Positions 21,270 through 43,583 are shown, numbered from the stretch's first letter. The stretch is 64,000 bases of DNA from Phenylobacterium sp. SCN 70-31 (GCF_001724605.1 NZ_MEEX01000001.1:132295-196294); one strand, 5' to 3'. The notes: generated by a model not told the origin, from the sequence alone. Numbers and translations are program-made.

Positions 21270-21312
21270 GGCCCTCCCAGAACGGTTGCGCGCTTTACAC
21301 CCTCCTGCTTAC

Positions 21313-21328
21313 TGGTAATGTGTTACCA
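21313..21328. promoter_or_regulatory. Island operator copy 1: TGGTAATGTGTTACCA
   Basis: Perfect 6+6 inverted repeat in the 83-bp divergent region between the CoA-transferase (start 21269) and PhyH-1 (start 21353). Confidence 0.7.
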
Positions 21329-21352
21329 ATACAATCGTGGAGGAACAGGCCC

Positions 21353-22195
21353 ATGTCGCTGGATGTCGATCGAGACCCCTATGCCGTTCCTGACGACCTC
21401 GCGGCCCGCATCGACGCGCTGGACCTGCGCCAGAACATCGTGGACCTGGTGGACCAGGGTTACACGGTCATCCGGGACCCAAAGGCCATCGCCCTTGCCG
21501 ACGAGGTGCGGGAGGCGATCATCCGCTGCGTGCCCGCCGCCCCCGAGGCGAAGGCGCCGACCCGCTTCACCCTGCTCGATCAGGACCCGGTGTTCGCCGA
21601 GGCGATCACCACCCCGAAACTGCTGGCGCTGGTGGAATACCTGCTGGGTCGCGGGGCGCTGTTCTCGCAGCTTTCGGGTTCACGCCGCCGGCCGGGGCCT
21701 CAGTCCCTGGGACTGCACGCGGACAACAGCTGGTTCCCCGCCCCCTTTCCCGACTGGGAGATCATGGCGACCGGCTGCTTCGTCACCGACGAATTCACCG
21801 AGGAATCCGGCGCCACCCTGGTGATCCCGGGCACCCACAAGCTGAAGGACCATCCGCCGAAGGAACGGCGGGAAAGTCTGGAGGGCGCGGTTCCCATCGT
21901 GGCGCCCAAGGGCTCCATCTGCCTGTGGAACGGTTCGGTCTGGCACGGCAACTATCCCCGGCGGCTTCCCGGCGAGCGCGTCGTCCTCCACATGACCTAC
22001 ACCCGCGTCGGAATGCAGCCGATCGAGACCTACGATCACCTGGACGAGACATGGTTCGCCGACAAGGACCCGGCGCTCCCCACCCTGCTCGGCCGCCACA
22101 ACTTCCTCGGCCGCCGTCACGGCTGGAAGCAGAACGATCGCGAGCTTCTGAAGGAGACCTACCAGCAGGTGCACGGCCCGGGGTTCCGGGCCTGA
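21353..22195 (+). CDS. PhyH-family (phytanoyl-CoA dioxygenase-like) Fe(II)/2-oxoglutarate dioxygenase 1
   Basis: HxD...H facial triad context (LGLHADNSWFP, GSVWHGNYPR). GGAGGA RBS before ATG 21353. About 60 % identical by eye to 23543..24382. Confidence 0.8.
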   Translation: MSLDVDRDPYAVPDDLAARIDALDLRQNIVDLVDQGYTVIRDPKAIALADEVREAIIRCVPAAPEAKAPTRFTLLDQDPVFAEAITTPKLLALVEYLLGRGALFSQLSGSRRRPGPQSLGLHADNSWFPAPFPDWEIMATGCFVTDEFTEESGATLVIPGTHKLKDHPPKERRESLEGAVPIVAPKGSICLWNGSVWHGNYPRRLPGERVVLHMTYTRVGMQPIETYDHLDETWFADKDPALPTLLGRHNFLGRRHGWKQNDRELLKETYQQVHGPGFRA

Positions 22196-22199
22196 GCCG

Positions 22200-22883
22200 T
22201 CAGGCGTCACCGCCGCCGAGAACCTCGCGCGTCGGCGCCTGGAAATCCAGAAGCTGGTCCTGATAGCGCTTTGCACGGTCGCGCAGACGCGCGGCGTGAG
22301 GCTCGGTCGCGACGCCGGCCAGGATGACCGCCCACCCGAAGCCGATGCGTGGCTCGACGTAGCTGATGTCGTAGGTGCTGCTGGCCCAGGTGCGGACATT
22401 GGCCGCAAAGATGTCCATCAGCGTCTCGGAAAGCACCCGGGTGTCGATGTCGTCGTCCAGCATCCCCGCCCGGTACGCCCGACGCATGGCGGCCTCGAAT
22501 CGCTCGGGATTCTCGCGACCGGGCTCGGTCTCGGAGCCACCGGAATAGGCGTGGGTCGCGCGGAACAGCGCCCGGTAGAAAGGCTGGTTCTCGGCGTAGA
22601 ATGCGACGCCGACGGTCAGCGTCGCGAAGAAGAAGTCGAACACGTCGGTGTCGCCGATCGGCCAGAGGCGCGTCTGGAAGATCGCCTGCTCTTCCTTGAG
22701 CAGCGCCCGGATGATGCCGACCTTCGAACCGAACAGCTCATAGGGGGTGCGCAGGCTCACCTGTCCCCGCGCCGCCAGCTCGCGCATGGACAGCTCGAAG
22801 CCACCACTTTCCCGGATGATCTCGCGCGCCACCCTGAGGATGCGCGTCGACCGATCCTCGGTCGATTTCCTTGATGCTTCCAT
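22200..22883 (-). CDS. TetR/AcrR-family transcriptional regulator
   Basis: N-terminal HTH (ILRVAREIIRESGGFELSMRELAARGQVSLRTPYELFGSK). 227 aa. Confidence 0.9.
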   Translation of the reverse strand: MEASRKSTEDRSTRILRVAREIIRESGGFELSMRELAARGQVSLRTPYELFGSKVGIIRALLKEEQAIFQTRLWPIGDTDVFDFFFATLTVGVAFYAENQPFYRALFRATHAYSGGSETEPGRENPERFEAAMRRAYRAGMLDDDIDTRVLSETLMDIFAANVRTWASSTYDISYVEPRIGFGWAVILAGVATEPHAARLRDRAKRYQDQLLDFQAPTREVLGGGDA

Positions 22884-22997
22884 GAAGCCTTTTACTTCTC
22901 ACCCTACAGTCGGCCGCGGAAAACCCGCCGCCGCCATCATTCCCTGCGCGACGCAACCATGACCTGCAAAGGATCGGCAAGCTACGTTGACCGAGAT

Positions 22998-23013
22998 TGG
23001 TAACGAGTTATCA
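22998..23013. promoter_or_regulatory. Island operator copy 2: TGGTAACGAGTTATCA
   Basis: Lies in the divergent tetR / SCP2-like intergenic region, 4 bp upstream of ATG 23017. Confidence 0.65.
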
Positions 23014-23016
23014 TTC

Positions 23017-23484
23017 ATGCGTACAGAGGCTCGAAGGTTCCGCGCGGCGGAAGGAAACGCATTGACCGACATCACGGACACGAAACTCGCCTTCGCCGGA
23101 CCGGAATGGATCGCCGCAGCCGAAGCCATCCTTGAGGACCTCGCGGCGACACATGGCGAAGCGGGCCAGCGCTTCAGCCTGTGCGAGCGATTCACGGACG
23201 CCCCGGTCGAAATCTCGCCCTCCGGCCTCGCCGCGTGGTGGTTCCGGCTGGACGGCCAGACGGTCGAGGTGGGCGCCGGCGAGATCGGCGACGCCGATGC
23301 GACCGTGACAGCCGACTACGTCGCCACCCTGCCCGTCGCGCGACTGGTCTACACGCCCGAGGTCATCGCCGAGCGCCGGGCCAAGCGCGAGCGAGGCGAA
23401 CTTCCCAGCCAGCAAGGCGACTGGTCGCGCGCCCCGCGGTGGCTGACCGAACTCCACAACCGGCTGGCGGTCATCACCGCCTGA
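23017..23484 (+). CDS. SCP2 (sterol-carrier-protein-2)-like lipid/acyl-CoA binding domain protein
   Basis: 155 aa. The pattern PEWIAAAEAIL...FRLDG..VEVG.GE...ADATVTADY...ARLVY resembles SCP2-fold proteins. Paralogue of 58463..58897. Confidence 0.55.
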   Translation: MRTEARRFRAAEGNALTDITDTKLAFAGPEWIAAAEAILEDLAATHGEAGQRFSLCERFTDAPVEISPSGLAAWWFRLDGQTVEVGAGEIGDADATVTADYVATLPVARLVYTPEVIAERRAKRERGELPSQQGDWSRAPRWLTELHNRLAVITA

Positions 23485-23542
23485 TCTGGCCCCCGTCCGG
23501 GCGCGCGCACCGCCGCCCGGACGCAAGTTCCGGCTCGCCGGC

Positions 23543-24382
23543 CTACGGCTTGCCGCTGCGGGCGATGCGCTGGGTGTAGCGCAGCTTCACCGGATCGGCG
23601 CCCCCGCTCTCCACGGTCGTCGCGCCGAGGAACAGCTTGCGGCCCAGGAGGTCGGCGATCCCTTCGGGCTGGCTGGCGACCCAGGCGTCGTCCAGATGGC
23701 TGTAATCCTCGACCGGCGCGAACCCGACGCGGGTGTAGGTCATGTGCATCACCACGCGGTCGCCGGGAATCTCGCGCGGGTAGTTGCCGTGCCACACCGA
23801 GCCGTCCCAGAGGCAGAGCGATCCTTTGGGCGCCACGATCGGCACCATCCCTTCCTGGATGCGGCACTCCTCCTCGCTGGGATGGCGCTTGAGGACGTGG
23901 GTTCCCGGGATGATGGAGGTGCAGCCTCCTTCCTTGGTGAACTCGTCCGTCACCCAGCATGCCGTCGCCATGATCTCCCAGTTCGGGAACGGCGCGGGGA
24001 ACCAGCTGTTGTCGGCATGCAGCACCAACGGCGCCGCGCCTTCGCCGCGGATCGAACTGGTGAGCTGGCTGAGGATCGCGCCGCGTCCCACCAGGAACTC
24101 CACCAAGGCCAGAAGCCGGGGCACCAGGACCGCTTCCGAAAACACCGGGTCCCGCCCCAGCAGAAGGGCGGCGCTCTGGCCGGTGCGCGGCGGTCCCGTC
24201 TCCTCGGCCAGGCGCACGATCGCTTCGCGCACCCGATCGGTCAGGGCGTGCGCCACCGGATCCTGGATGATCGTGTAGCCCTGATCGACCAGTTCGCGGA
24301 CGTTTTCCCGGAGGCCCAGCGCGTCGATCTTCGGCGCCAGGAACTCGGGAACTTCATAGGGGTCGGCAGTGTCGAGCGGCAT
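23543..24382 (-). CDS. PhyH-family Fe(II)/2-oxoglutarate dioxygenase 2
   Basis: LVLHADNSWFPAPFPNWEIMAT, GSVWHGNYPR. Start trimmed to ATG 24382. The track ORF extends to 24895 as shadow sequence. Confidence 0.8.
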   Translation of the reverse strand: MPLDTADPYEVPEFLAPKIDALGLRENVRELVDQGYTIIQDPVAHALTDRVREAIVRLAEETGPPRTGQSAALLLGRDPVFSEAVLVPRLLALVEFLVGRGAILSQLTSSIRGEGAAPLVLHADNSWFPAPFPNWEIMATACWVTDEFTKEGGCTSIIPGTHVLKRHPSEEECRIQEGMVPIVAPKGSLCLWDGSVWHGNYPREIPGDRVVMHMTYTRVGFAPVEDYSHLDDAWVASQPEGIADLLGRKLFLGATTVESGGADPVKLRYTQRIARSGKP

Positions 24383-24418
24383 TTGAGGGTTCCCCGGAAT
24401 CCGTTCGTTGCATTGGGT

Positions 24419-24434
24419 TGGTAACGCGTTATCA
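24419..24434. promoter_or_regulatory. Island operator copy 3: TGGTAACGCGTTATCA
   Basis: Lies in the divergent region between PhyH-2 (start 24382) and CoA-transferase-2 (start 24488). Confidence 0.65.
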
Positions 24435-24487
24435 TCCTGCGCAACGGCGGCGTCAAGCAACGGCTGCCGACACACCGGGAGGTTGCT

Positions 24488-26731
24488 GTGACGACGACAG
24501 GCGGGCGTCCCCTTGCGGGCATCGGTGTTGTGGAGTTCGGCGTGGACGCCGGAGTCCGCTACTGCGGCCGGCTCTTTTCGGTCCTCGGCGCCACCGTGGT
24601 GCGGGTGAGTGCGGGCGGCGGCCGGCCCTCCGCCTTCGACCTCTGGCTGGACGAGGGCAAGACCTTCGCGGAAACGACCGGCGAAGCGCTCGCCGCCCTG
24701 ACGACCCGCGGCGCGCGCATCGAGGTGGCGATCGCGGGGCAGGATCACACCTGGGTCGCCAGGGCCGACGCCGACCTGCGGGCGCTCAAGGCCGAGGTTC
24801 TCCGCCTCAACCTCACCTGGTTCGGCCGCAACGGGCCGTATGCCGACTGGCAGGGAGACGACGCCCTGATCCTGGCGCTGACGGGGACCGCTCACGGCTT
24901 CGGCCCCGTGGAGGGGCCTCCGCTGCTGGCCCAGGGACGCGCGCCCCAGATGCTGGGCGGCGCCACGCTGTTCCTCTCGGGACTCGCGGCGCTATGGGGT
25001 CGTCGCACGGGCCGGACGCACGGCCGCGTGGACGTGGACGTTCTCGAAGCCTGCCTCTGCTTCACGGAACATGGGCCGCCGGCCATCGCCGTCTCCGGCG
25101 AGCCTTCCACCCGAAAGGGACTCAACCGGTACGGCGCCGGCTATCCCACCGTGGCCTATCCGTCTTCGGACGGCTGGATCGGCGTCACGGCGCACACGCC
25201 CGCCCAATGGCGGTCGCTCTGCCAACTCGTCGGCCGCCCCGACCTGCCCGACGACCCGCGCTTCGCCACCGGACCCGACCGCGTCGCGAACGCGGCCGCC
25301 CTCGATCAGGAGTTGCGCCCGATCTTCGCGACCGGCGCCACCGGCCAATGGCTCGAAGCCGGGCAGCGTCTCCGCGTTCCGCTGGCGCCCGTGCCGGATC
25401 CCGACGCCCTCATCGCCACCGACCACTGGCGCGAGCGGGGCAGCTTCGGTCCGCTCCCGGGAGCCGCGGGCGTCCAGGCGCCGGGCCTCCCCATGCGCGT
25501 CGCGTTCGACGGCCAAACCGAGGCCCCCCGACCCGGACACGGACCGGGGCCGCTGTCCGGCCTGCGCGTGATCGACTTCTCGATGGGCTGGGCCGGCCCC
25601 CTCGCCACCCGCCATCTGGCCGACCTGGGAGTCGACGTCATCAAGATCGAGACCGAGGACCATTTCGACTGGGCGCGGGGCTGGGCGCCCGTGCCGGGAT
25701 CCGATCCGCCGGCCCACGAGATCGCCTCGGCCTTCAACCTGATGAACCGCAATAAGCGCGGCGTCGCCCTCGATCTCTCGACTCCTGCAGGTCGTACGCG
25801 GGCCAAGGCGCTGGTGGCCGGCGCCGACATGGTGATCGAAAACTTCGGCCCCGGCGTGATGGACAAGCTGGGACTTTCAAAGGAGGTTCTCCGGGCCGCC
25901 CGGCCAGGCTTGGTGTTCATCTCGATGGCCGCGTTCGGGGCGACCGGCCCCTGGCGTTCGTTCCGGGCCTACGGCTCGACGGTCGAGCACGCCAGCGGCT
26001 TGCCCTTCTTCAACGGCGAAGAGGACTGGCCCCCCAGCCTCCAGCACCTGGCCTATGGCGACCCCATCGCGGGCATCTATGCCGCGGCGATGACCCTTGC
26101 GGCGCTGTTCGGGCGCGAGACCCTGGGCGGGGCCGACATCGACCTGTCGCAGGTGGAGTGCCTGTTCCAGCTGGGCGCGGAATCCCTCATCCGCATGCAG
26201 GTCGAAGGGCCGAGAGTTCGCATGGGCAGCCGCAATCCCGACATGGCGCCACGCTGCGTGGCGCCGGCGGCAGGCGACGACGCCTGGGTCGCCATCGCCT
26301 GCCCTGACGAGGCGTCATGGCGCGCGCTCGCCCACGCCATCGGCCGCGTGGACTGGCTGTCCGACCCAGACCTGGCCACGCCCCAGGGACGCAACGCCCG
26401 CGCCGCGGAGATCGAGGCCGTCGTCGCGGCCTGGACGACCGGCCGCGACGCTCGGACGGCCGCGACGGTTCTGCAGGCGGCGGGCGCCTGCGCCGCCCCG
26501 GTGCTCGCACCGCACGATCTCGCCCACGACCCGCATGCGAGAGCGAACGCCACCTGGGGCTGGATGACCCGAACCCACGTCGGATCCCATATGATGCTGG
26601 CGCCGCCCTATCGCATCGACGGCGTGCGACCCGCGCTACGGTCGCCCGCGCCCCTTCTGGGGGAACATACGAACCGGGTCCTGAGTGCTCTCGACATCGC
26701 CGAAAGGCCTCGCGAAGCGCTGGAGGCTTAG
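24488..26731 (+). CDS. Tandem-domain family III CoA-transferase-like protein 2, 747 aa
   Basis: Same two-unit architecture as 19074..21269. The C-unit begins LSGLRVIDFSMGWAGPLATRHLADLGVDVIKIE. GGGAGG RBS before GTG 24488. Confidence 0.85.
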   Translation: MTTTGGRPLAGIGVVEFGVDAGVRYCGRLFSVLGATVVRVSAGGGRPSAFDLWLDEGKTFAETTGEALAALTTRGARIEVAIAGQDHTWVARADADLRALKAEVLRLNLTWFGRNGPYADWQGDDALILALTGTAHGFGPVEGPPLLAQGRAPQMLGGATLFLSGLAALWGRRTGRTHGRVDVDVLEACLCFTEHGPPAIAVSGEPSTRKGLNRYGAGYPTVAYPSSDGWIGVTAHTPAQWRSLCQLVGRPDLPDDPRFATGPDRVANAAALDQELRPIFATGATGQWLEAGQRLRVPLAPVPDPDALIATDHWRERGSFGPLPGAAGVQAPGLPMRVAFDGQTEAPRPGHGPGPLSGLRVIDFSMGWAGPLATRHLADLGVDVIKIETEDHFDWARGWAPVPGSDPPAHEIASAFNLMNRNKRGVALDLSTPAGRTRAKALVAGADMVIENFGPGVMDKLGLSKEVLRAARPGLVFISMAAFGATGPWRSFRAYGSTVEHASGLPFFNGEEDWPPSLQHLAYGDPIAGIYAAAMTLAALFGRETLGGADIDLSQVECLFQLGAESLIRMQVEGPRVRMGSRNPDMAPRCVAPAAGDDAWVAIACPDEASWRALAHAIGRVDWLSDPDLATPQGRNARAAEIEAVVAAWTTGRDARTAATVLQAAGACAAPVLAPHDLAHDPHARANATWGWMTRTHVGSHMMLAPPYRIDGVRPALRSPAPLLGEHTNRVLSALDIAERPREALEA

Positions 26732-26810
26732 CCACGTCTCTAGCGCGAAGGCCCCCCGAAGACTGGCGGAAATGTGGGAAGAGTTCGGCGAAGGATTTGG
26801 CGAAGGATTC

Positions 26811-26832
26811 TGGGCGACCCCGAGGTCGCCCA
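26811..26832. terminator. GC-rich hairpin (TGGGCGACC-ccga-GGTCGCCCA) between convergent genes
   Basis: 9-bp stem with a 4-nt loop, preceded by the 12-bp tandem ggcgaaggattt/ggcgaaggattc. No clear U-tract on either strand. Confidence 0.4.
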
Positions 26833-26847
26833 GGCGCGCCGCGCATG

Positions 26848-27738
26848 TCAGGCGTAGGGGTCGGTGCCCGTATGGATGAAGGGCGCCACGCGCTCACCGT
26901 CCACGTTCTGCGGATCGACGTAGGGATAGAGGGGCCGGCCCACCAGCCGGTCCAGTTCCGGATACTTCTGCCGGAGTTGGGCCGAGACCGTACGGTCGTA
27001 CAGCGCCTGAGGACGCATGTAGGTGCGCATGTAGTTCTGGACCAGGGTGATCCTCAGGCCGTCTTTGTTGCGCGGCAGCGAGCCATGCCACGTGGCGCCG
27101 TTCCAGATGGCCAGCGAACCGGCCCTGGCGATCAGCGGAACGGTGCGGATCGGAGAGGTCTCCATGTCGGCCTCGTACGGCAGGGTGGCCCGGCCGTACT
27201 TGTGGCTGCCCGGCGCGAAGATGGTGGGACCATCCTCTTCGCCCGCATAGTCGGTGCAAAGCCAGGAGGCGTTGCACATGTGGGCGATGCTGCCGCCGCC
27301 CGGCGGAATGCCGTGGGAATCGCTGTGCAGCGCGTGAGTGCGACCTTCGCGGCCCTTGATGATCCAGGTCTGCCCCGAAAGGATCGCGCTTTCGCCCAAC
27401 AGCCAGCGAACGAGGGCCAGCATCACCGGGTTGGTCGCAGCCTCGACGAAGACCTCGTCCTCCTCCAGCACGTCCCACTTGTTGGGATCGATCGCCGCCT
27501 TCGACGGCGAAGCCGTCAGCGGATCTCCGATCGGGATGCCGTTCCGCTTCTCGCAGGTGCGCAGCATGGCGTCGCGCAACCGCTCGGCGAAGCCGTCCGC
27601 CGACCGGATCTTCTCGGGCGGCACGACGGTGAAGCCATACGCTTCGAGTTCCACGACATGCTCGAACAGGTCGTATCGGGCGATCTCACGCATGATGGCG
27701 TCGGCGTGGGGCGACGCCCCGCAGTCCGAGATTCTCAT
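26848..27738 (-). CDS. PhyH-family Fe(II)/2-oxoglutarate dioxygenase 3 (divergent paralogue)
   Basis: THALHSDSHG (HxD) and GATWHGSLPR. 26 nt downstream of the TonB receptor on the same strand. Confidence 0.7.
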   Translation of the reverse strand: MRISDCGASPHADAIMREIARYDLFEHVVELEAYGFTVVPPEKIRSADGFAERLRDAMLRTCEKRNGIPIGDPLTASPSKAAIDPNKWDVLEEDEVFVEAATNPVMLALVRWLLGESAILSGQTWIIKGREGRTHALHSDSHGIPPGGGSIAHMCNASWLCTDYAGEEDGPTIFAPGSHKYGRATLPYEADMETSPIRTVPLIARAGSLAIWNGATWHGSLPRNKDGLRITLVQNYMRTYMRPQALYDRTVSAQLRQKYPELDRLVGRPLYPYVDPQNVDGERVAPFIHTGTDPYA

Positions 27739-27764
27739 GGTCTGGTCTCCTTCCTCTCGGGCGG

Positions 27765-30317
27765 CTAGCGGGCGCCGAAGCGGTAGGTGAGCTCCACCCC
27801 GAACGTGCGGGGCTCGGCGTACAGCTTCTGGGCGACCCCGAGGCTCTGGAGCGCGAGCGCGCCGGCAAAGGCGTAGGTCTTGTCCGTGAGGTTCTTGACG
27901 AACAGTCCGGCGTCCACGTTCTCGCGCCCGAACACCCCGGTCCAGTCAAGCCGAGCGCTCATGACGAGGAAGCCCGGTTCCGACACCGTGTCCTTCATCG
28001 AGCCTTCGGCCAGAATGACGGTCGGATTGTTGGAGTAGACCTCGATGTAGCGCTGGGCCTGGTCGCTCAGCCACGACCGCGACTGCCATGAAGCCGTCAC
28101 CGAGCCCTTCAGCGCCCCATACTCCTCCTGCATCGGCACGTCGTACTGCGCGGTGACGCTGAGCTTGTGCTTCGGCGTGTTGGCGAAGGGGTTGTTGGAC
28201 AGGTCGATGTTGGTCCCGGCAGGCGCAGCGCCGAGCGGATCCGAACCGGTCCACTTCGTATATTCGGCGTCGGTGTAGCTGTAGGTGCCGATCAGACTCA
28301 CCCGGTCGAACATCAGGAAGCCTTCGGCCTCGAAGCCCTTGATCGTCGCCGCGGCCACGTTGGCGGTGAAGGCGATGTTCTGGCCGGCCGGGGTGATCGC
28401 GTTCACGCCCCGCTGGATGTTCGAATAGTCGTCCTTGTATGCGGCGACGTTCAGGCGGCCGCGGGCTGCGCCCAGGAAGAAGTCCAGCTTCGCCCCGATC
28501 TCGGTGTCGATCACCGATTCCGATTCATACTGCGGCACGAAGCCCGGAACCGCCGCAGCGCCCTGGATCGTATTGAGACCGCCCGGCTTGTAGCCACGAC
28601 GGCGCGTGGCATAGACGAGCAGGTCGTCGTTGACCTTCCAGTCCAGAGCGAAGGTATAGCCGGGGCCACTGCCCTTGGTGATCGAGCGGCTCACGGCGCC
28701 CGGCGTGACCAGCCCAGAGGGATAGGACACCACCGCCGCCGCGCTGACGTTCGTCACCTCGGTGTGGGTCTTGCGATAGCCCGCCGTGAACTTCAGCCCT
28801 TCCAGGCCCACCCGTCCCAGGTCGGCGGTGAACTGTCCGAAGTAGGCGGTCTCGCGATTGTGGCCGGCCAGCGCCATGGGCGTCGCCGAAATGGGCCCCA
28901 GGTTCGGCGTGCCGACGCCGCCGAAGGTGCGGTTGAGGTTGGTGCTGCCGCGCAGGCCCTCGGAGACGGGCTGGTTCTGATAGTAGTAGCCCGCGATCCA
29001 GATCAGGGCGTTGTCGTAGACCGAGCCGTTGATCTGGAATTCGTTGGTGAACGTCTTGTTGAACTTGCCGGTGTCGCCGACCAGTTGGCCGTTGATCCAC
29101 TGCGACTGGCTGGAGGTGCCGAACGCCGAGGCGTTGAGGTCGAACGGGGTCGCCGAGTAGTTGCCGGCCACCAGGTTGCGGGCCTGCTGGAAGCTGAAGA
29201 TGTTCTTCACGCCGAACTCGAAGGCTCCCACCGACGGCAGGGTGATCTCGGTCGTGTTCACGAGGTCGTGGCGGTTGATGTATTCGCGGTTCGGATAGGC
29301 CGTGCCCGTGGTCATCCGGCGCAGGTTGTCCCCACCCCGGCGGCTGTTCTCCACCTCGGTCACCAGGGCCGCGCGGATGTCGGCGAGGATCTGCACCCGC
29401 TGCGCCTGGCAGGTCGCCACATCGGCCGAGAAGCCGAACTGCACGGCTTGGCCGCAGACAGCGGTGAAGGCGGCGGCGTTTCGATTCAGGTTCGCAAGAC
29501 CCAGGTTGGCGCCGATCGTGACCCGGGCGGCCGTGGTCGAGTCGAAGTCGTAGTAGTTGTAGAAGAGCGTGTTCTTGAACCAGTCGGCCGGCTTGAACAG
29601 CAGACTGGCGCGCAGCGAGCGGCTGTCGTCGCCGTCCATGTGCTGGCCGGTGATGGTGTTCTCGACATAGCCCTTGCGATGGGTCCGGTTCAGCGCCAGG
29701 CGGAACGCCAGGGCGTCCTCGATGATCGGCACGTTCAGCACCAGATTCAGGTCGCTGCGGTCGAGATTGCCGAACTTGCCGTTGACCGACCCGTAGAAGT
29801 CGTCGGCGGTCGGCGCATTGGGCCCGATGAGCACGGCGCCGCCGGCCGTCGCCCGGCCGAACAGGGTGCCCTGCGGCCCCTTCAGAACCTGCACCGAACC
29901 GATGTCGAAGAACGGCATCGAAGGGCCGGTCGGGCCGAACGGCGCCTCGGCGAAATAGGAAGTGACCGAACCGCCGCCGAACAGGCCCTGGCCGATCCCG
30001 CGGATCGAGTAGTTGGCCGAGTTGCGACTGAACACCGAGTTTGCGCCACCGACCGACAAGGACGGAATCACAACCTGAAGGTCGCTGGCGTTGTAGATCT
30101 GGCGGTCCTGAAGTCCCTGCCCGCTGACCGCGGTGACGGCCGCGGGCACGTCCTGAAGATTCTCTTCGCGCCGGCGGGCGGTGACGATGACCTCGTCGAG
30201 CGACGTCGCCGACGGCGTGTCAGCCACGACCTCGGCGAGTGCGGGCGGTGCCGCCAGGCTGACGACGAGGACGCCGATGGCCGAGCCGTATTGGAGCGCG
30301 AGCTTTCTGGTGAACAT
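27765..30317 (-). CDS. TonB-dependent outer-membrane receptor 1 (850 aa)
   Basis: Signal peptide, plug with TonB-box-like DEVIVTARRREENLQDVPAAVT, and a beta-barrel ending in the C-terminal ELTYRFGAR region. Start set at ATG 30317 inside the chimeric track ORF 27765..32141. Confidence 0.9.
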   Translation of the reverse strand: MFTRKLALQYGSAIGVLVVSLAAPPALAEVVADTPSATSLDEVIVTARRREENLQDVPAAVTAVSGQGLQDRQIYNASDLQVVIPSLSVGGANSVFSRNSANYSIRGIGQGLFGGGSVTSYFAEAPFGPTGPSMPFFDIGSVQVLKGPQGTLFGRATAGGAVLIGPNAPTADDFYGSVNGKFGNLDRSDLNLVLNVPIIEDALAFRLALNRTHRKGYVENTITGQHMDGDDSRSLRASLLFKPADWFKNTLFYNYYDFDSTTAARVTIGANLGLANLNRNAAAFTAVCGQAVQFGFSADVATCQAQRVQILADIRAALVTEVENSRRGGDNLRRMTTGTAYPNREYINRHDLVNTTEITLPSVGAFEFGVKNIFSFQQARNLVAGNYSATPFDLNASAFGTSSQSQWINGQLVGDTGKFNKTFTNEFQINGSVYDNALIWIAGYYYQNQPVSEGLRGSTNLNRTFGGVGTPNLGPISATPMALAGHNRETAYFGQFTADLGRVGLEGLKFTAGYRKTHTEVTNVSAAAVVSYPSGLVTPGAVSRSITKGSGPGYTFALDWKVNDDLLVYATRRRGYKPGGLNTIQGAAAVPGFVPQYESESVIDTEIGAKLDFFLGAARGRLNVAAYKDDYSNIQRGVNAITPAGQNIAFTANVAAATIKGFEAEGFLMFDRVSLIGTYSYTDAEYTKWTGSDPLGAAPAGTNIDLSNNPFANTPKHKLSVTAQYDVPMQEEYGALKGSVTASWQSRSWLSDQAQRYIEVYSNNPTVILAEGSMKDTVSEPGFLVMSARLDWTGVFGRENVDAGLFVKNLTDKTYAFAGALALQSLGVAQKLYAEPRTFGVELTYRFGAR

Positions 30318-30384
30318 GAATTCCCCCTCTGGTTGTCGCCACCCCAGCCTTCTGGACGCCTGTCTGAAGTCCTGGCTCGCTGAG

Positions 30385-30423
30385 TGGTAACGTGTTTTAT
30401 TGCCCGAAGGTAACGCGTTATTC
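30385..30423. promoter_or_regulatory. Island operator copies 4a (TGGTAACGTGTTTTAT) and 4b (AGGTAACGCGTTATTC)
   Basis: Two adjacent sites, 30385..30400 and 30408..30423, with centres 23 bp apart. They lie in the divergent TonB-receptor / acyl-CoA-synthetase region. The right half-sites are degenerate. Confidence 0.55.
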
Positions 30424-30479
30424 CCGGGTAGGCAAGGCGTTGAAAAGCCGTCTGCCCCGACGCCCCTTGAGGAGGAAGC

Positions 30480-32102
30480 ATGCTCTCGGACAGAAAGATG
30501 GAGATGGCGAGGACGCCCGATGTGAGCCTCATCCGCACCCTCACGGAGAGGGCCGACTCCACCCCGGACAAGGCCTATGTCGTCGACATCGAAGGACGCA
30601 CGCTCACCTATGCCGAGACCGTGTCGGCGGCGCAGCGATGGGCCGGCGCCTGGCGGCGCGCGGGCGTGTCGGCGGGCGACCACGTGGTCACCATGCAGTA
30701 CAACACCATCGAGTCCCTTCTGGGCTGGTTGGGACTGGCCTGGCTCGGGGCCGTCGAGGCGCCGGTCAACACCGACTACCGCAGCGACCTTCTGGCCCAC
30801 GCCCTCAACCTGACCCGGGCCCGGGTGGTGCTCGTCCTGGACCGGTTCCTCGATCGGATCGCCGAGGTGGCCGACCGGCTGGAGCATCTTCGCGCCATCG
30901 TGGTGATCGACGGTCCGGCCCGACCCTGCGCGGACTTCGAGGTCACGGCCGGCGAGGCCTTCCTCGCCGGAGCCGAAGCGCCAACAGACCTGGAGATCCC
31001 AGCGCCTTGGGACATCATGAACGTGCTCTTCACCTCGGGCACCACGGGGCCGTCCAAGGCCGTCCGCCTGCCCTGGGCCCAGATGCACGCGATGGTGACG
31101 GGATCGTTCCGGATCGAGGACTTCGGGCCCGACGAGGTCGTCTACAACGCCGGCCCGACCTACCATGTCGGCGCCAAGGTGTTCCCTTACCTGGCGGCGC
31201 TCTGCGGCGGCCGACACCTGATGCGTCCCTTCATCAGCCGCAGCGCCGTGGCCTCGGAATATCTGCAGTTCGGCGTCACCGTCGGCGGCGTGGTCCATGA
31301 CTGGCTGGCCGAGCCCGAGCAGCCCGACGATGCGCAAAGGCCGCTGAAATTCCTGCTCACCCCCTACCGCGACCCCGCGGCCGAGCCGTTCGCGCGCCGG
31401 TTCGGCTGCCGGCGCTTTGGCGTGTTCAACATGACCGAGGTCAGTTCGCCCATCCAGTTCCGGGACTGGGACGCCGCCGTCCACGACGAGGCGGGTCGGA
31501 TGAGCTGCGGCGTTCTTCGGGAGGGTTATGACGCGCGCATCGTCGATGCGCACGACCAGCCCGTACCGGACGGCCAGCCCGGCGAGCTGATCGTCCGCGC
31601 CGACCGTCCCTGGGTGATGAACGCGGGCTACCTCAACAATCCCGAGGCCACCGCGGAAGCCTGGCGCAACGGCTGGTTCCACACGGGCGACGCCATGTAC
31701 CGCGACGCCGACGGCAACTTCTTCTTCCTCGACCGGATCAAGGACGCCATCCGCCGGCGTGGCGAGAACATCTCCAGCTTCGAGGTCGAGGCCTACGTCA
31801 ACGCGCATCCCGCGGTGGCGCTCTCGGCCGCGGTCGCGGTGAAGAAGAACGAGCACGCCGGCGCCGACGAGGAGATCAAGATCGTGGTCCAGCGCGTCGC
31901 CGGACAATCGCTCTCGGCCGAGGACCTGATCCGCTGGCTCATTCCGCGGATGCCGCGCTTCATGACGCCGCGCTATGTGGCGTTCATGGACGCCCTGCCC
32001 CTCACGCCCACCCAGAAGGTGCGCAAGAAGGTGCTGCGGGAGGCGGGCCTCGGCCCCGATGTCTGGGACCGCGAGGCCGCCGGGATCGAAATCCCCCGCT
32101 GA
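30480..32102 (+). CDS. AMP-dependent acyl-CoA synthetase/ligase
   Basis: AMP-binding motif LFTSGTTGPSKAV. Also WFHTGD and the RIKDAIRRRGENIS C-terminal domain. GAGGAGGA RBS. Confidence 0.9.
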   Translation: MLSDRKMEMARTPDVSLIRTLTERADSTPDKAYVVDIEGRTLTYAETVSAAQRWAGAWRRAGVSAGDHVVTMQYNTIESLLGWLGLAWLGAVEAPVNTDYRSDLLAHALNLTRARVVLVLDRFLDRIAEVADRLEHLRAIVVIDGPARPCADFEVTAGEAFLAGAEAPTDLEIPAPWDIMNVLFTSGTTGPSKAVRLPWAQMHAMVTGSFRIEDFGPDEVVYNAGPTYHVGAKVFPYLAALCGGRHLMRPFISRSAVASEYLQFGVTVGGVVHDWLAEPEQPDDAQRPLKFLLTPYRDPAAEPFARRFGCRRFGVFNMTEVSSPIQFRDWDAAVHDEAGRMSCGVLREGYDARIVDAHDQPVPDGQPGELIVRADRPWVMNAGYLNNPEATAEAWRNGWFHTGDAMYRDADGNFFFLDRIKDAIRRRGENISSFEVEAYVNAHPAVALSAAVAVKKNEHAGADEEIKIVVQRVAGQSLSAEDLIRWLIPRMPRFMTPRYVAFMDALPLTPTQKVRKKVLREAGLGPDVWDREAAGIEIPR

Positions 32103-32150
32103 GACCGACCGGGCGCGAGGCGGGGGCGCCCGCCTCGGCATGCCGACTCT

Positions 32151-35100
32151 TCACCAGGTGTCGATGAACGGCCGCTTCTTGCCCTCGCGTCGGGGGATCG
32201 GCGTGCTTTCGAGACCGGCGACGATCCATGTCCGCGTCTCGGCCGGGTCGATCACGTCGTCGAAGTCGAAGCCCATGGCCACGTTCAGGGCCTTGCCCTG
32301 CTCGTAGGCGTTGGTCACCATCTTCTGGAAGGCGGCCTCGCGTTCCTCCGGGTCGGCGATGGCTTCCAGTTCCTTGCGGTAGCCCAGCTTCACGGAACCC
32401 TCCAGGTTCATGCCGCCGAACTCGCCGCTCGGCCAGGCGATCGTGAAGAACGAAGCGTGCGAGCACCCGCCGGCCATGGCGAGGATGCCCAGGCCGTACC
32501 CCTTGCGCAGCACGATGGTGAACACAGGCACCGTCAGGTTGGGGCCCGTCACGAACATCCGGCAGCAGTGGCGGATCAGCCCGGTCTTCTCGGCCTCGGG
32601 TCCCACCATGTTGCCGGGCGTATCGGCCAGCACCACCAGGGGAATATCGAAGGCGTCGCAGAGCTGCATGAAGCGGGCGGCCTTGTCGGCGGCCTCCGAG
32701 TCCACGGCGCCGCCCAGGTGCGCCGGATTGTTCGCGATGATCCCGACCGGCCGGCCTTCGATCCGCGCAAGGGCGGTGACCATGCCCAGTCCGAACCCCT
32801 TGCGCAGTTCCAGCACCGTTCCTTCGTCGGCCAGCGTCTCGATCACCTCGCGGATGTCGTAGACGCGCACCCGGTTCTCAGGGATGAGGTGGCGCAGTCG
32901 CCGCTGGTCGGCGCACGACCACGTCGGCAGCCGTCCCTGGAAGTACGACAGATAGCGCTTGGCCGCCTCGACCGCCTCGGCCTCGTCGCGGACCACGATA
33001 TCGACGACCCCGCCCGGAACCTGCACCGAGAGCGGCCCCACCTCGTCCGGGGTATAGACACCCAGCCCGCCGCCCTCGATCACGGCCGGCCCACCGACCC
33101 CGATGGTGGAACCTTCGGTGGCGATGATGACGTCGCAACAGCCCAGCAGCACCGCCGCGCCGGCGAAACAGCGGCCGTTGGTGATCCCGATCTGGGGAAC
33201 CAGGGCGCTGAGGCGGCCTTGCAGCATGAACGCCTTCACGTTGAAGATGCCGCCGCCCGAGACGCGGTCGGTATCGCCGGGCCGCCCGCCGCCGCTCTCC
33301 GAGAAGTAGATGACCGGCAGCCGCCACTTTTCGGCCAGTTCGAACAGGCGGTCGGTCTTCTCGTGGTTCTTCATGCCCTGGGTGCCGGCCAGCACCATGT
33401 AGTCGTACGACATCACCACACAGCGGGACGCCTCAGGGCCGAAGATGTCGCCATTCACCCGGCCGACGCCGGTGACCATGCCGTCCGCCGGCGTCGTGCG
33501 GATGAGTTCCTCGACCGGATTGCGCAGCCGGCGCCCGGCGATCACCAGCCCCCCGTACTCCACGAACGAACCTGGGTCGCACAGGTCGTCCACATTCTCG
33601 CGCGCTGTGCGGAAGCCCAGCTTGCGCCGCTTGGCCACCGCCTCGGGTCGGGCGACGTCGAGCAGAAGGTCGTGCCGGTCGAGGACCTCGCGCAGGTCGG
33701 GGCGGACATGGTCGAGGTCGATGGCGTCGCCATCGTCGGCCGCCGTCTCGCCGAGGTCGGCCGGCTCCACGAACACCAGGCTCTGGCCTTCCGACACGGT
33801 GTCGCCCACCGCCACCGCATGGAGACGCACGACGCCATCGACGCCGGCGGCGACGAGGTGCTCCATCTTCATGGCCTCCAGCACCGCGACGGGCTCGTTC
33901 GCCCGGACCTCCGCGCCCACCGCGACGGCGAGGCTGACCACCGTTCCCTGAAGAGGCGCCTCGACCGCCTGGGTTCCGGGCGGCCCCGTCACGTCGGCCG
34001 CGCGAGTGTCGGCGGCGCCCGAGGCGTCCAGCTCGAAGTTCACCGAAGGCGCCGAAAGCTCCGCGGCGGCGGCCAGCTGGCCGGCCCGCGTCTCCATGAG
34101 CGCCGTGGTCCAATCCCCCGCCACGAAGACCGGATCGCGCAGGATGGCGCGCAGGAACGGGATGTTGGTCGGCGCGCCTTCGATCCGGAACTCGGCCAGC
34201 GCCCGGTCGGCGGCGCGATAGAGCGCGGCCTGGTCGCCTGCCGCATCGTGGACGATCACCTTGGCCAGCAGGGAATCGAACCGGACGCTGGTCGCGTATC
34301 CGGTGTAGCCGAAGCCATCCACGCGGACGCCGGCGCCCGACGGCGGCTCGTAGGCGGCCAGGACGCCGGCGGCCGGACGCGCCGTCCCGTCGTCGGCCAT
34401 CCGCTCCAGGTTCACCCGGGCCTGGACCGCGACGCCGCGCACAGGCGGCGGGCCATCGGCGAGACCCAGGTCGGCCAGGCTGCGCCCGCTGGCCACCGCG
34501 AGCTGGAGGTCTACGAGATCCAGGCCCGTCACCGCTTCGGTGACGGTATGCTCCACCTGGAGCCGGGCGTTGGCTTCGATGAAGGCGTGTCCGCCGCCCG
34601 GCTCCACCAGGAACTCGATCGTGCCGACCCCACGATAGCGCACCGCCCGACCCAGCTCGACCGCCGCCTCCAACAGCCGCAGCCGCACCGCCGGGTCCAG
34701 TCCTCGGGCGGGCGCCAGTTCGACGATCTTCTGGCGCTGGCGCTGGACGCTGCAGTCGCGATCCCACAGGTGGATGACCCGTCCCGAGCCATCGCCCAGA
34801 ATCTGCACCTCGATATGACGCGCGCGGGGCATCAGCCGTTCGACATAGAGGTCGCCGACACCGAAGGCCGACAGCGCTTCGGAGGCGCAGCGTTCATAGG
34901 CCGCCGCCAGGTCCTCGGGCCGCTCGACGGGCCGCATGCCTCGCCCGCCGCCGCCGGCCACAGCCTTGACCATCACGGCGCCGCCAGGTCCCAGGTCGCG
35001 CAGGAACGCAGCGGCCTCGGCAAGGCTCGTCGGCCCTTGTGTGCCGTCCAGGGTGGCGACGCCGCAATGGCGGGCGATCTGACGCGCCGCGGCCTTGTCG

Positions 35101-35435
35101 CCGAACGCGTCGAGGGTCTCGGGTTCCGGCCCCACGAAGGTGAGGCCGGCGTCTCGGCAGGCCCGCGCGAACGCCGCCGACTCGCTGAGGAAGCCGTAGC
35201 CGGGGTGGACGGCGTCGGCGCCGGCGGCCGCGGCCGCCGCAAGAACGCCCGCCGCATCCAGATATGCGGCCGGTCCGACGCCGCTGAGCGCCACGGCCTC
35301 GTCCGCCCGGCGCACATGCAGGGCGCGGGCGTCGTCCTCCGAGTGCACGGCGACGGTCGGGAGCCCCAGCCGCGCGGCCGTACGCGCGATGCGGATGGCG
35401 ATTTCGCCGCGATTGGCGATCAGAAGCTTTTCCAC
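32151..35435 (-). CDS. Single-chain acyl-CoA carboxylase (biotin carboxylase + BCCP + carboxyltransferase fused, LCC-like)
   Basis: N-terminal KLLIANRGEIAIRIART ATP-grasp biotin carboxylase, biotinylation motif EAMKMEH, and a C-terminal AccD/PccB-like carboxyltransferase (MVLAGTQGMKNHEK, SESGGGRP). GTG 35435 lies 7 nt after the MFS stop. The track start at 35501 is an alternative. Confidence 0.85.
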   Translation of the reverse strand: MEKLLIANRGEIAIRIARTAARLGLPTVAVHSEDDARALHVRRADEAVALSGVGPAAYLDAAGVLAAAAAAGADAVHPGYGFLSESAAFARACRDAGLTFVGPEPETLDAFGDKAAARQIARHCGVATLDGTQGPTSLAEAAAFLRDLGPGGAVMVKAVAGGGGRGMRPVERPEDLAAAYERCASEALSAFGVGDLYVERLMPRARHIEVQILGDGSGRVIHLWDRDCSVQRQRQKIVELAPARGLDPAVRLRLLEAAVELGRAVRYRGVGTIEFLVEPGGGHAFIEANARLQVEHTVTEAVTGLDLVDLQLAVASGRSLADLGLADGPPPVRGVAVQARVNLERMADDGTARPAAGVLAAYEPPSGAGVRVDGFGYTGYATSVRFDSLLAKVIVHDAAGDQAALYRAADRALAEFRIEGAPTNIPFLRAILRDPVFVAGDWTTALMETRAGQLAAAAELSAPSVNFELDASGAADTRAADVTGPPGTQAVEAPLQGTVVSLAVAVGAEVRANEPVAVLEAMKMEHLVAAGVDGVVRLHAVAVGDTVSEGQSLVFVEPADLGETAADDGDAIDLDHVRPDLREVLDRHDLLLDVARPEAVAKRRKLGFRTARENVDDLCDPGSFVEYGGLVIAGRRLRNPVEELIRTTPADGMVTGVGRVNGDIFGPEASRCVVMSYDYMVLAGTQGMKNHEKTDRLFELAEKWRLPVIYFSESGGGRPGDTDRVSGGGIFNVKAFMLQGRLSALVPQIGITNGRCFAGAAVLLGCCDVIIATEGSTIGVGGPAVIEGGGLGVYTPDEVGPLSVQVPGGVVDIVVRDEAEAVEAAKRYLSYFQGRLPTWSCADQRRLRHLIPENRVRVYDIREVIETLADEGTVLELRKGFGLGMVTALARIEGRPVGIIANNPAHLGGAVDSEAADKAARFMQLCDAFDIPLVVLADTPGNMVGPEAEKTGLIRHCCRMFVTGPNLTVPVFTIVLRKGYGLGILAMAGGCSHASFFTIAWPSGEFGGMNLEGSVKLGYRKELEAIADPEEREAAFQKMVTNAYEQGKALNVAMGFDFDDVIDPAETRTWIVAGLESTPIPRREGKKRPFIDTW

Positions 35436-35442
35436 GGAACCC

Positions 35443-36942
35443 CTACTGCCTTTGCATCGCCGCGCGTTCCTCGCGCTCCAGGTCGGCCAGGATTTCGGCA
35501 TGCCGCTGCCGGCTGAGCGGGTAGGCCCACATGATGCTCATCGAGATGCAGGTGAAGATCAGCATGGCCGGGCCGTAGAGAACGGCCAGTTGCACCGTGG
35601 CTTCGTGCGGCACGGCGTCGACCGGAACGCCCCGCGGAAACCGGATGACATCCAGCGCCACCCCCGCGATCGCGCCGCCGACGCCTAGCGAAGCCTTGCG
35701 CGTGAACGCGCTGGCGCCAAACAGGAAGCCCTCGGATCGCCCGCGGAACCGGTGATGATAGGCGTCGGCCACATCCGCCAGCATGGCGCCCGCCACCACG
35801 ACGGCCGGACCGCCGATGAAGCCCGATACGAAGGTGCTGGTCGCCAGGATGACGGTCAGCAGCCCCTTGTCCTCCAGCGGTATGACCCCCGCCAGCCCGA
35901 GGCCGATCGTTGCCGCCGGGACGATGACCGAAAAGACCACGCACGCCACATAGACCGGCTTCTTGTCGAACCGGTGCGCCAGCGCGCGGGCGATGAAGGC
36001 GCCGGCCATGAAACCGAAGACATTGGCCACCAGCACCATCTGGACGCCCGTCGGCGGCAGCCTCCAGAAGTAGGTGTTCAAGTGGATGTTCAGCGCCGCC
36101 TGCACGCCCCCCAGCACGTACGAGATCAGGATCGCGACGAAATAGATCGTGAACGCCTTCAGTCGGAACGCCGTGAGCAGGTTCCGGATCAGGCCCCCAC
36201 TGCCCATCGCCAGGCTGCCGTTCGCGGCGCCGCGCGCATATCCTTCCTGGGCGCGGCGCTGGGTGCCCAGAGCCGAGACGAAGATCACCACGATCACGAT
36301 GGCGCCGCAGAACAGCGCCAGGGGCTGGTAGGCCTCGGGATTGAGCTGGCCGTTCGGAAACGCTTCGGTGGGGCGGAAGAACAGGCTGAACGCAAGGCCC
36401 AGCACCGCCAGCCGCCCGATATAGGCGAACATCGCCCGATAGCCGCTGACCGACACCCGCTCCTTGAAGTCGCTGCTCAGTTCGGCGCCCAGAGCCATGT
36501 GGGGCACGAAGTAGAACGACTGCATCAACCGGCCCACCGCGGTGAATCCCAGCAGCCAGGCGAACAGGCCCCACTGGCCCAGCGTGTCCGGGGGGCTGAA
36601 GAGCAGGAACAGGCAGATCGCCAGCGGAACCGGCGCCAGGTAGAGGAACGGATGTCGCCGGCCCAGGCGGGATCGGAAGTTGTCCGAGATGTTGCCGATG
36701 ATCGGATCGGTGATCCCGTCAAACACCAGGGCGATCAGCAGGGCCAGCCCCGTGAGCGAGCCCGACAGGCCCACGACCTGGACATAGAAGAAGAACAGGA
36801 ACGTCTCGAGGGCGGCGGTCTTCACGCCCTCCGCCGCCTCGCCCAGGCCGTAGCTCAGCTTTGTGGCCAGGGGCAGGCGTCCTTCTCTCTCCGAAAGGTT
36901 CGCCGGCTTCGGGTCGCTCGCCGCCTCCACCACGCTCGCCAT
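35443..36942 (-). CDS. MFS/GPH-family permease
   Basis: 499 aa with about 12 TM helices. The N-terminal KLSYGLGEAAEG pattern is paralogous to 44480..45919. Start trimmed to ATG 36942. Confidence 0.8.
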   Translation of the reverse strand: MASVVEAASDPKPANLSEREGRLPLATKLSYGLGEAAEGVKTAALETFLFFFYVQVVGLSGSLTGLALLIALVFDGITDPIIGNISDNFRSRLGRRHPFLYLAPVPLAICLFLLFSPPDTLGQWGLFAWLLGFTAVGRLMQSFYFVPHMALGAELSSDFKERVSVSGYRAMFAYIGRLAVLGLAFSLFFRPTEAFPNGQLNPEAYQPLALFCGAIVIVVIFVSALGTQRRAQEGYARGAANGSLAMGSGGLIRNLLTAFRLKAFTIYFVAILISYVLGGVQAALNIHLNTYFWRLPPTGVQMVLVANVFGFMAGAFIARALAHRFDKKPVYVACVVFSVIVPAATIGLGLAGVIPLEDKGLLTVILATSTFVSGFIGGPAVVVAGAMLADVADAYHHRFRGRSEGFLFGASAFTRKASLGVGGAIAGVALDVIRFPRGVPVDAVPHEATVQLAVLYGPAMLIFTCISMSIMWAYPLSRQRHAEILADLEREERAAMQRQ

Positions 36943-36966
36943 GAAGATCCCCGCCCCATCTGTTGT

Positions 36967-36982
36967 TGGTAATTTGTTACCA
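36967..36982. promoter_or_regulatory. Island operator copy 5: TGGTAATTTGTTACCA
   Basis: Perfect 6+6 inverted repeat 25 bp upstream of the MFS start codon. Confidence 0.7.
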
Positions 36983-37146
36983 GTAACGCCGACCCCGAGG
37001 CGTCGGGTCAAGTGGAACCTGTCGGAGAACCGTCCCGCTCGGGCGCCGAAATGGGGCGGCTCCCTGGGGAAGAGCCGCCCGAAAGACGGAGACCATCGCC
37101 TCGCGTCCCTTGAGTTTCGCAACGGGGAGGAACGCCGCGCCCAGCT

Positions 37147-37162
37147 TGGTAACGAGTTATCT
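37147..37162. promoter_or_regulatory. Island operator copy 6: TGGTAACGAGTTATCT
   Basis: The first 15 of 16 positions are identical to copy 2. It lies 180 bp upstream of copy 5 and about 170 bp upstream of purC. Confidence 0.55.
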
Positions 37163-37296
37163 TGATGGCCGCAAGCGTTGCGCGACGCCCCCACGCCTGC
37201 GGGATTCTCGCCACGAAACCCACACGGCCGGCACGATCGCGCAGAGCGACGCCAGTCCTCGGGAATCCACGCACCGTGAAGCATGGCGGCGGCGCC

Positions 37297-37324
37297 TTGA
37301 CGCGCAAGACCTCACTGCAATACC
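37297..37324 (+). promoter_or_regulatory. Caulobacter-type housekeeping promoter TTGACGC-N13-GCAATACC ending 6 nt before the purC ATG
   Basis: It matches the TTGACGS / GCTANAWC architecture with a 13-bp spacer. There is no Shine-Dalgarno between it and ATG 37331. Confidence 0.45.
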
Positions 37325-37330
37325 GGGCCT

Positions 37331-39562: not shown

Positions 39563-39620
39563 CGAAGCCTCCGCGAAGTCAGCCGGACGCGACGCGCATT
39601 GCGGCGTCGCCCGGACTGTG

Positions 39621-39650
39621 GAAGATGGATACATCTTCTAAGATGCATAT
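39621..39650. promoter_or_regulatory. Inverted repeat GAAGATG-gata-CATCTTC followed by TAAGATGCATAT at the marR start
   Basis: Three AAGATG/CATCTT half-sites in an AT-rich patch. They overlap the possible marR ATG at 39643. Confidence 0.5.
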
Positions 39651-39663
39651 AGAGAGAACGGAA

Positions 39664-43567: not shown

Positions 43568-43583
43568 AAGATGCATCTTGACA
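43568..43583. promoter_or_regulatory. Perfect 12-bp palindrome AAGATGCATCTT overlapping a TTGACA hexamer
   Basis: Palindrome at 43568..43579 and TTGACA at 43578..43583, followed by an AT-rich ATATATATT stretch. Located in the divergent TonB-receptor-2 / iclR region. Confidence 0.55.

Follow-up and report, generated by a model that had tools for sequence, protein, structure and literature searches.

KstR (Rv3574), the TetR-family repressor of the cholesterol and lipid catabolic regulon of Mycobacterium, binds as a dimer to the palindrome TAGAAC-N2-GTTCTA, which overlaps the -10 element; many such sites lie in divergent intergenic regions of the regulon, and the protein also represses its own gene (PMC1995591) and is released by CoA thioesters (PMC5389471). 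Here we describe a system of comparable layout in Phenylobacterium sp. SCN 70-31, contained in a 64,000-nt stretch of its DNA (NZ_MEEX01000001.1:132295-196294; called the window below, with all positions counted from its start): a 16-bp palindrome stands in the intergenic regions of an island of putative acid-degradation genes (Table 1) and is very probably the operator of a TetR/AcrR-family repressor encoded within that island. That this protein binds the palindrome is put forward with somewhat more confidence than how exactly it represses and what induces the island.

A palindrome in the divergent regions of the island

An earlier note on this DNA had listed seven 16-mers as copies of one operator, and all of them are present exactly as it quoted them and at the positions it gave. 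The exact pattern TGGTAAYNNGTTAYCA has four matches in the window, against 0.02 expected from shuffled sequence, and the perfect palindrome TGGTAACGCGTTACCA, with up to three mismatches allowed, has five, against 0.06 expected. When the window was scanned with a position weight matrix (PWM) built from 32 sites of the window and related loci, five of the seven scored 24.6-28.9 bits and the two at 30385 and 30408 scored 12.7-12.8 bits; the next best position anywhere in the 64 kb reached 2.9 bits, and no further site comparable to the seven was found in coding or non-coding DNA. According to the frame plot and Pfam map, all seven lie in the non-coding DNA, which takes up about 1.2 kb (~6%) of the 19.2-kb segment from 19074 to 38290. 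Each of the five divergent intergenic regions carries at least one site, and none of the five convergent or intra-operon junctions does. The A+T richness that the earlier note had ascribed to these spots is likewise borne out, with 20-bp windows around the sites ranking between the 96th and the 99.9th percentile of a window whose overall G+C content is 69.7%.

Since the raw list of open reading frames (ORFs) in DNA of such high G+C content is full of artefacts, genes were called from the periodic G+C pattern (frame plot), from Pfam matches and from the gene calls on identical public contigs; the proteins of the window match those of Phenylobacterium sp. SCN 70-31 identically. An open frame of 1458 aa on the minus strand (27765-32141) is one such high-G+C artefact: past 30317 it crosses the spacer and then runs antisense to the ligase gene, which begins at 30480.

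A profile of orthologues of the island's TetR protein retrieved 13 loci (L003-L015) from species-representative genomes, with TetR identities from 96% down to 40%, and a second set, independent of TetR, consisted of metagenome contigs fetched with the PhyH-family dioxygenase PhyH1 as bait. Island proteins were placed on these loci by tblastn and the loci then scanned for the motif. In all, the motif scans covered the window's 64 kb plus about 540 kb from related loci. All 13 species-representative genomes with this TetR subfamily are metagenome-assembled genomes (MAGs), assigned to Phenylobacterium, Sphingomonas, a Caulobacteraceae bacterium and a Steroidobacter; among the species-representative genomes retrieved with the patterns used for the subfamily there were no cultured isolates.

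The motif TGGTAAY-NN-RTTACCA is conserved in about 25 related loci of Phenylobacterium, Sphingomonas and other MAGs, where it precedes the orthologous PhyH, CoA-transferase, MFS, TonB-receptor and tetR genes despite extensive rearrangement of gene order and orientation. Sites of at least 16 bits number 72 across 600 kb in 54 sequences, and the score distribution has two modes. On the gene maps of the fetched loci, every site falls between mapped cluster genes. The logo of the motif, T-G-G/a-T-A-A-C/t-n-n-G/a-T-T-A-C/t-C-A, has high information at 14 positions in both halves. Among these loci, the Phenylobacterium deserti MAG (L006) has at least eight PhyH-family paralogues around its TetR gene, and the Sphingomonas MAG L011 has two paralogous TetR copies (1125-1718 and 8657-9256).

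Conservation can also be followed site by site. The orthologue of O1, upstream of PhyH1, is kept in L003-L011, L021-24 and L056-57, and the site proximal to the transporter gene (O5) is identical in L052, L053, L009 and L011. The two low-scoring sites, O4a and O4b, belong to a block, GAATAACGCGTTACCT-N7-ATAAAACACGTTACCA, which is invariant in three relatives (L003-L005) while the flanking spacer diverges, and are therefore taken as real rather than chance matches. Moreover, tandem pairs spaced 22-23 bp apart (25 bp in one) are found in five lineages, namely the window group, L007, L011, L012 and, once, L019, with several of the recurring pairs located upstream of TonB receptors.

The TetR-family protein as predicted cognate repressor

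The proposed repressor belongs to the TetR family by several measures. Its residues 15-61 match Pfam TetR_N with E=2e-4 (21.5 bits, slightly below the gathering score of 24 bits), and a profile of 23 orthologues matches 30 solved structures of the family, the best with E=3e-11; the helix-turn-helix region aligns to that of KstR. Alignments of the profile to KstR and to 2hyt reach residues 156-184 of the 227 aa, in agreement with the all-helical C-terminal domain for ligand binding and dimerisation and the total of about 200-230 aa that are usual in this family.

Comparative genomics supports the proposal of the earlier note that this protein is the cognate repressor. It is the only regulator conserved across the related loci, and the motif or its core is present in 13/13 of the loci fetched by TetR homology (40-96% identity). 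In most loci with an orthologue, a site lies directly upstream of tetR, and in two (L008 and L012) tetR instead closes an operon that has a site in its promoter; the region upstream of tetR also contains a site in each of three further loci, L056, L057 and L058 (TetR identities of 50, 46 and 40%). Among the contigs fetched with PhyH1, sites occur in 10/10 of those with a TetR orthologue versus 0/8 of those of at least 5 kb without one (Fisher p = 2e-5), even though each of the eight codes for a dioxygenase with 39-66% identity to PhyH2 (65-66% in five); this contrast is supportive rather than conclusive because the two groups are phylogenetically distinct. The motif reappears in a Steroidobacter locus (L015), where a 40%-identical TetR is encoded among unrelated genes for PQQ dehydrogenases and a chalcone-isomerase-like protein, and where the perfect palindrome AGTAACGCGTTACT (9883-9902) is kept in the divergent region beside tetR (9986-10654). 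The same comparisons favour the single regulon that the earlier note had outlined, predicted to comprise both CoA-transferases, the three dioxygenases, the TonB receptor, the ligase and the MFS-carboxylase operon.

The Steroidobacter locus also differs in the recognition helix of its TetR protein, which reads VSMTAPY as against VSLRTPY in most other orthologues (MSLRAPY in L058), and in the outer bases of its operator, GAG/CTT as against TGG/CCA elsewhere. Operator and helix may thus have covaried; as a single informative case this is suggestive and does not amount to evidence.

An alternative, which we consider unlikely, is that the palindrome is bound by a regulator of LacI, GntR or IclR type encoded elsewhere and that the adjacent TetR protein controls other targets or recognizes another sequence. 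Other regulators are indeed nearby, with a MarR gene at 39514-40116 and an IclR gene within 42920-44449 of the window, a GntR gene in L056 and an IclR gene in L057, and the outer TGGT...ACCA of the motif resembles GntR-type half-sites. MarR, IclR and GntR are, however, not conserved across the loci as TetR is (no MarR match was obtained in L003-L051); in known GntR-type sites, the gap between TGGT and ACCA is shorter than the 8 bp seen here; the AAC-N2-GTT geometry is the one that the TetR protein KstR recognizes; and the Steroidobacter locus keeps the core palindrome beside its TetR orthologue in the absence of any cluster enzyme. A LacI-type regulator in particular, which the earlier note had kept in play for the CG at the dyad centre, loses its basis in the wider sample: the two central positions (8-9) hold 0.28 bits each and CG occupies them in 0/72 sites. 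Nor did Pfam reveal a LacI-family domain in the 39 ORFs of the window that were scanned, and the gene tables of the related loci list none, so that the candidate lacks support on both counts.

Several observations weigh against assigning the palindrome to the TetR protein. The loci lacking both TetR and motif belong to a different dioxygenase subgroup, and the contrast with the TetR-bearing contigs is not phylogenetically independent. The sole orthologue outside the cluster context, that of the Steroidobacter locus, has a diverged site that scores 7.4 bits on the PWM, and the association of the motif with TetR can only in part be told apart from its association with the other cluster genes. 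In L011 and in L013, one TetR copy is without a site within 1 kb upstream. In the window, no recognisable tetR promoter overlaps O2; the promoter matches reported below were made with a consensus of E. coli type, which may not apply to Caulobacterales. Finally, the evidence behind the assignment is all sequence comparison.

Promoter overlap and the putative double operator of the transporter operon

A sigma-70-like promoter for the small SCP2-like gene, TTGACC-N16-TATCAT (22987-23014, plus strand), is the sole match within 20.5-38.5 kb, and O2 covers its spacer and -10 element; the position of this promoter, together with tblastn conservation that begins at about residue 14-22, makes TTG at 23062 a more probable start codon for the gene than ATG at 23017. 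Over all loci, TTG is found at offset -12/-11 in 28/116 oriented sites, compared to a background of about 2.5 per offset (p = 3e-12), and because of this enrichment 11-12 bp before the start of the site, the operator would fill the spacer of many promoters and its right half, GTTATCAt, would form the -10 element. O3 is flanked by -35-like hexamers on either side (TTGCAT, 24408-24413, plus strand; TTGCGC, 24439-24444, minus strand), so that one dimer bound there would block both divergent promoters. Other sites, such as the one 25 nt from the MFS start codon (36967), lie just downstream of a likely promoter. Taken together, these positions point to promoter occlusion as the mode of repression.

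The mechanism that we propose is as follows. Each site would be bound by one TetR dimer, with two cooperating dimers probably occupying the weak pair at 30385/30408. The sites would fall within the core promoters or immediately after them, and several have a -35 element TTGnnn 5-6 bp upstream; with the right half-site doubling as the -10 element, bound repressor would exclude RNA polymerase, and in short divergent regions a single operator could shut off both promoters. The regulon so defined would consist of ten transcription units in five divergent regions and include the enzymes, the transporters, the SCP2-like protein and tetR itself. We infer autoregulation, which the earlier note had also suggested, from the position of O2, 115 bp upstream of tetR. 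By analogy with regulators of the KstR, FadR and PsrA type, an intermediate of the pathway would release the repressor and induce the island; the inducer would probably be a CoA thioester produced by the ligase or the transferases, or else the imported acid.

That the TetR protein might bind the motif yet activate some of the promoters, or have a dual role there, appears very improbable. A few TetR-family activators do exist, such as FasR (cited in PMC5389471), and the distal site at 37147 and the tandem weak sites are farther from start codons than the others. The sites nonetheless overlap the spacer, the -10 element or the start region, as is typical of repression, and KstR, whose sites share this geometry, acts as a repressor (PMC1995591); accordingly, we infer repression rather than activation. 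Least probable of all is that the conserved sequence is no operator but part of the promoter, such as an unusual -35/-10 or an alternative-sigma element common to the island genes. The right half-site does yield a -10-like TATCAT, and about a quarter of the oriented sites have TTG upstream at a constant spacing. Yet the motif is a palindrome, symmetric and informative in both halves, including the portion within the promoter spacer, where polymerase reads no sequence; 88/116 oriented sites are without TTG at the fixed offset, some sites are located downstream of a likely -10 element, and tandem copies 22-23 bp apart do not fit.

The region before the MFS-carboxylase operon has two predicted operators. 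For O6, the distal of the two, the reading of the earlier note is to be corrected in that the site would serve the MFS operon as a second, upstream operator and not purC. In a 96% relative (L052), O6 is conserved as a better match, TGATAACACGTTACCA, at 179 bp from the proximal site; the inter-operator segment (36983-37146, ~165 bp) is almost invariant there, and the segment between operator and purC has diverged. In the window, O6 is preceded on the minus strand by a -35-like TTGCGG (37169-37174) at the standard offset. An 80% relative (L054), in which the neighbouring gene is not purC, keeps the -35 element, the distal operator, a hairpin, CTTGACC and the proximal operator; an 81% relative has the proximal site only. 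O6 is thus assigned to a second, upstream promoter or to a leader of the MFS-carboxylase operon, and since it is oriented towards that operon, purC is probably outside the regulon. As a candidate member, purC was set aside as unlikely on three grounds: TTGCGG faces the MFS side, the segment on the purC side is unconserved, and the layout is kept where purC is not the neighbour.

The conserved inter-operator segment contains a G+C hairpin (37053-37081), which is followed by ATTTC on the minus strand. The fold of its 164 nt has z = -1.4, which is not significant alone. A search of the whole window against Rfam at gathering thresholds gave no match, and none of the conserved intergenic blocks is thus a known RNA element; the segment 36983-37146 may be a leader, an attenuator or a small RNA.

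Gene content of the island and its likeness to known regulons

Table 1. Genes and predicted operator sites of the island in the window, in order of position; scores are those of the PWM.
Feature	Position	Strand	Location, basis or remarks	Score (bits)
Tandem-domain family III CoA-transferase 1	19074-21266	-	Pfam, NCBIfam, public gene calls; predicted regulon member	
O1, TGGTAATGTGTTACCA	21313-21328		86-bp divergent region CoA-transferase 1/PhyH1	28.9
PhyH-family Fe(II)/2-oxoglutarate dioxygenase 1 (PhyH1)	21353-22195	+	Pfam; predicted regulon member	
TetR/AcrR-family regulator, 227 aa	22200-22883	-	Pfam TetR_N, PDB profile matches; proposed cognate repressor	
O2, TGGTAACGAGTTATCA	22998-23013		Between tetR and small SCP2-like gene; conserved in L003-L005	28.6
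Small conserved protein, weak SCP2-like match	about 23062-23484	+	Predicted regulon member	
PhyH-family dioxygenase 2 (PhyH2)	23543-24382	-	Pfam; predicted regulon member	
O3, TGGTAACGCGTTATCA	24419-24434		Between PhyH2 and CoA-transferase 2	28.9
Tandem-domain family III CoA-transferase 2	24488-26731	+	Pfam, NCBIfam; predicted regulon member	
PhyH-family dioxygenase 3	26848-27738	-	Operon with TonB receptor, 26848-30317	
TonB-dependent receptor	27765-30317	-	Operon with PhyH dioxygenase 3	
O4a, TGGTAACGTGTTTTAT, weak	30385-30400		First of tandem pair, TonB receptor/ligase region	12.7
O4b, AGGTAACGCGTTATTC, weak	30408-30423		Second of tandem pair, 23 bp from O4a	12.8
Acyl-CoA (AMP-forming) ligase	30480-32102	+	Pfam, NCBIfam; predicted regulon member	
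Single-chain biotin acyl-CoA carboxylase	32151-35435	-	Operon with MFS transporter, 32151-36942	
MFS_2/GPH-type transporter	35443-36942	-	Operon with carboxylase	
O5 (proximal), TGGTAATTTGTTACCA	36967-36982		25 nt upstream of MFS start codon	28.6
O6 (distal), TGGTAACGAGTTATCT	37147-37162		180 bp from O5	24.6
purC	37331-38290	+	Gene beyond MFS-side operators	

The enzymes of the island resemble known ones without reaching any NCBIfam equivalog cut-off. The carboxylase is a fusion of biotin carboxylase, BCCP and carboxyltransferase whose alignment with the long-chain acyl-CoA carboxylase 4RCN runs from end to end (1080 bits); it is translationally coupled to the MFS_2 (GPH-type) transporter, an unusual pairing. 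Both CoA-transferases, of ~730-750 aa, consist of two family III (CaiB/BaiF) domains, the C-terminal copy alone giving a strong match to known enzymes, among which YfdE, formyl-CoA transferase and benzylsuccinate CoA-transferases are the ones that they resemble; family III is also the family of AMACR. Among solved structures, PhyH1 is closest to KanJ and SptF, and the match of the small protein to SCP2 (E=0.043) is under the Pfam cut-off. A peroxisome-like alpha-oxidation of phytanate, which would combine PhyH, a family III transferase, SCP2 and the ligase, was considered and found weak, in that KanJ and SptF are not PHYH, the transferases are not racemase-like and the SCP2 match is below threshold. 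It is conceivable, if rather doubtful when taken as a whole, that the operator marks a compact, horizontally shuffled regulon for an undescribed catabolic pathway of Phenylobacterium and Sphingomonas from soil and water, possibly one for the degradation of branched-chain or isoprenoid acids, with the TonB receptor at the outer membrane, the MFS protein as importer, the PhyH proteins as hydroxylases and the SCP2-like protein as carrier, in which a KstR-like TetR protein senses a CoA thioester and a hairpin leader possibly adds a further layer before the transporter-carboxylase operon.

Beyond purC, the window contains a second, separate catabolic cluster (40102-50390) with a TonB receptor, an IclR regulator, an MFS_2 transporter, the large and small subunits of an aconitase-like enzyme and an isocitrate/isopropylmalate-type dehydrogenase; the PWM scan of the window found no TetR-type operator in it. 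Genes of the beta-lactamase family (serine hydrolases) are located beside the island, at 17638-18891 and 57211-58407, both on the minus strand, and also beside the orthologous cluster in L056; neither of the two in the window is preceded by an operator according to the same scan.

The motif provides a clean definition of a regulon, tying together enzymes with no assigned pathway, and names the protein that would act as its sensor. The TetR protein and a 16-bp probe could be used to screen for ligands, and thereby for the inducer and hence the substrate, or as a biosensor. The conceptual gain is small, because control of divergent catabolic promoters by a TetR repressor and its palindromic operator is textbook regulation; the practical value lies in the annotation of Caulobacterales and Sphingomonadales genomes and in opening the pathway to experiment. 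In the searchable literature, the half-sites of the motif combined with TetR and operator led only to unrelated papers, and no description of a cluster with this combination of enzymes was found. Motif and cluster thus appear not to have been described before, and the regulatory design itself is an ordinary one of a well-known kind.

Of the characterized members of the family in the PDB, KstR is the closest relative aligned over nearly the full length of the protein (E about 1e-7), and KstR and PsrA are also its best NCBIfam matches, both far below the cut-offs; with 20.3 bits against a cut-off of 280 for the KstR equivalog NF033703, orthology to KstR was rejected. The two systems share the family of the regulator, the palindromic sites at divergent regions of a catabolic regulon and, in the operator (TAGAAC-N2-GTTCTA / TnnAACnnGTTnnA in KstR), the AAC-N2-GTT core with its spacing. 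They differ in the outer bases, which are TAG/CTA in KstR sites and GGT/ACC plus a flanking T/A in Phenylobacterium, so that the outer T/A position of the KstR core is G/C in the motif GGTAAC-NN-GTTACC. They also differ in host and content, since Phenylobacterium is an alphaproteobacterium whose island encodes PhyH dioxygenases, CaiB-type transferases, a TonB receptor and a single-chain carboxylase in place of steroid genes, and in extent, the regulon being small and local within the sequence examined.

PsrA of Pseudomonas and Vibrio, FadR of Bacillus (YsiA) and FadR of Thermus are likewise TetR-family repressors of CoA-dependent catabolic genes, and the island's TetR protein is weakly homologous to PsrA (NCBIfam) and to the Bacillus FadR structures 3whb and 1vi0; this similarity is mostly confined to the helix-turn-helix (HTH) domain, with scores far under the family cut-offs. 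Regulators of the PsrA/FadR type have palindromic operators, which differ in sequence from that of the island, and are released by acyl-CoA. TetR/tetO and QacR offer a more general parallel, that of a dimeric HTH repressor encoded divergently from its target, with a palindromic operator over the promoters and autoregulation. QacR-type proteins bind as paired dimers, which the tandem sites of the island, about 2 helical turns apart, recall. Unlike those systems, which control a single efflux gene in response to drugs, the island has one type of operator over five promoter regions. By analogy, it would work in the manner of the KstR, FadR and PsrA-type regulons while being the orthologue of none.

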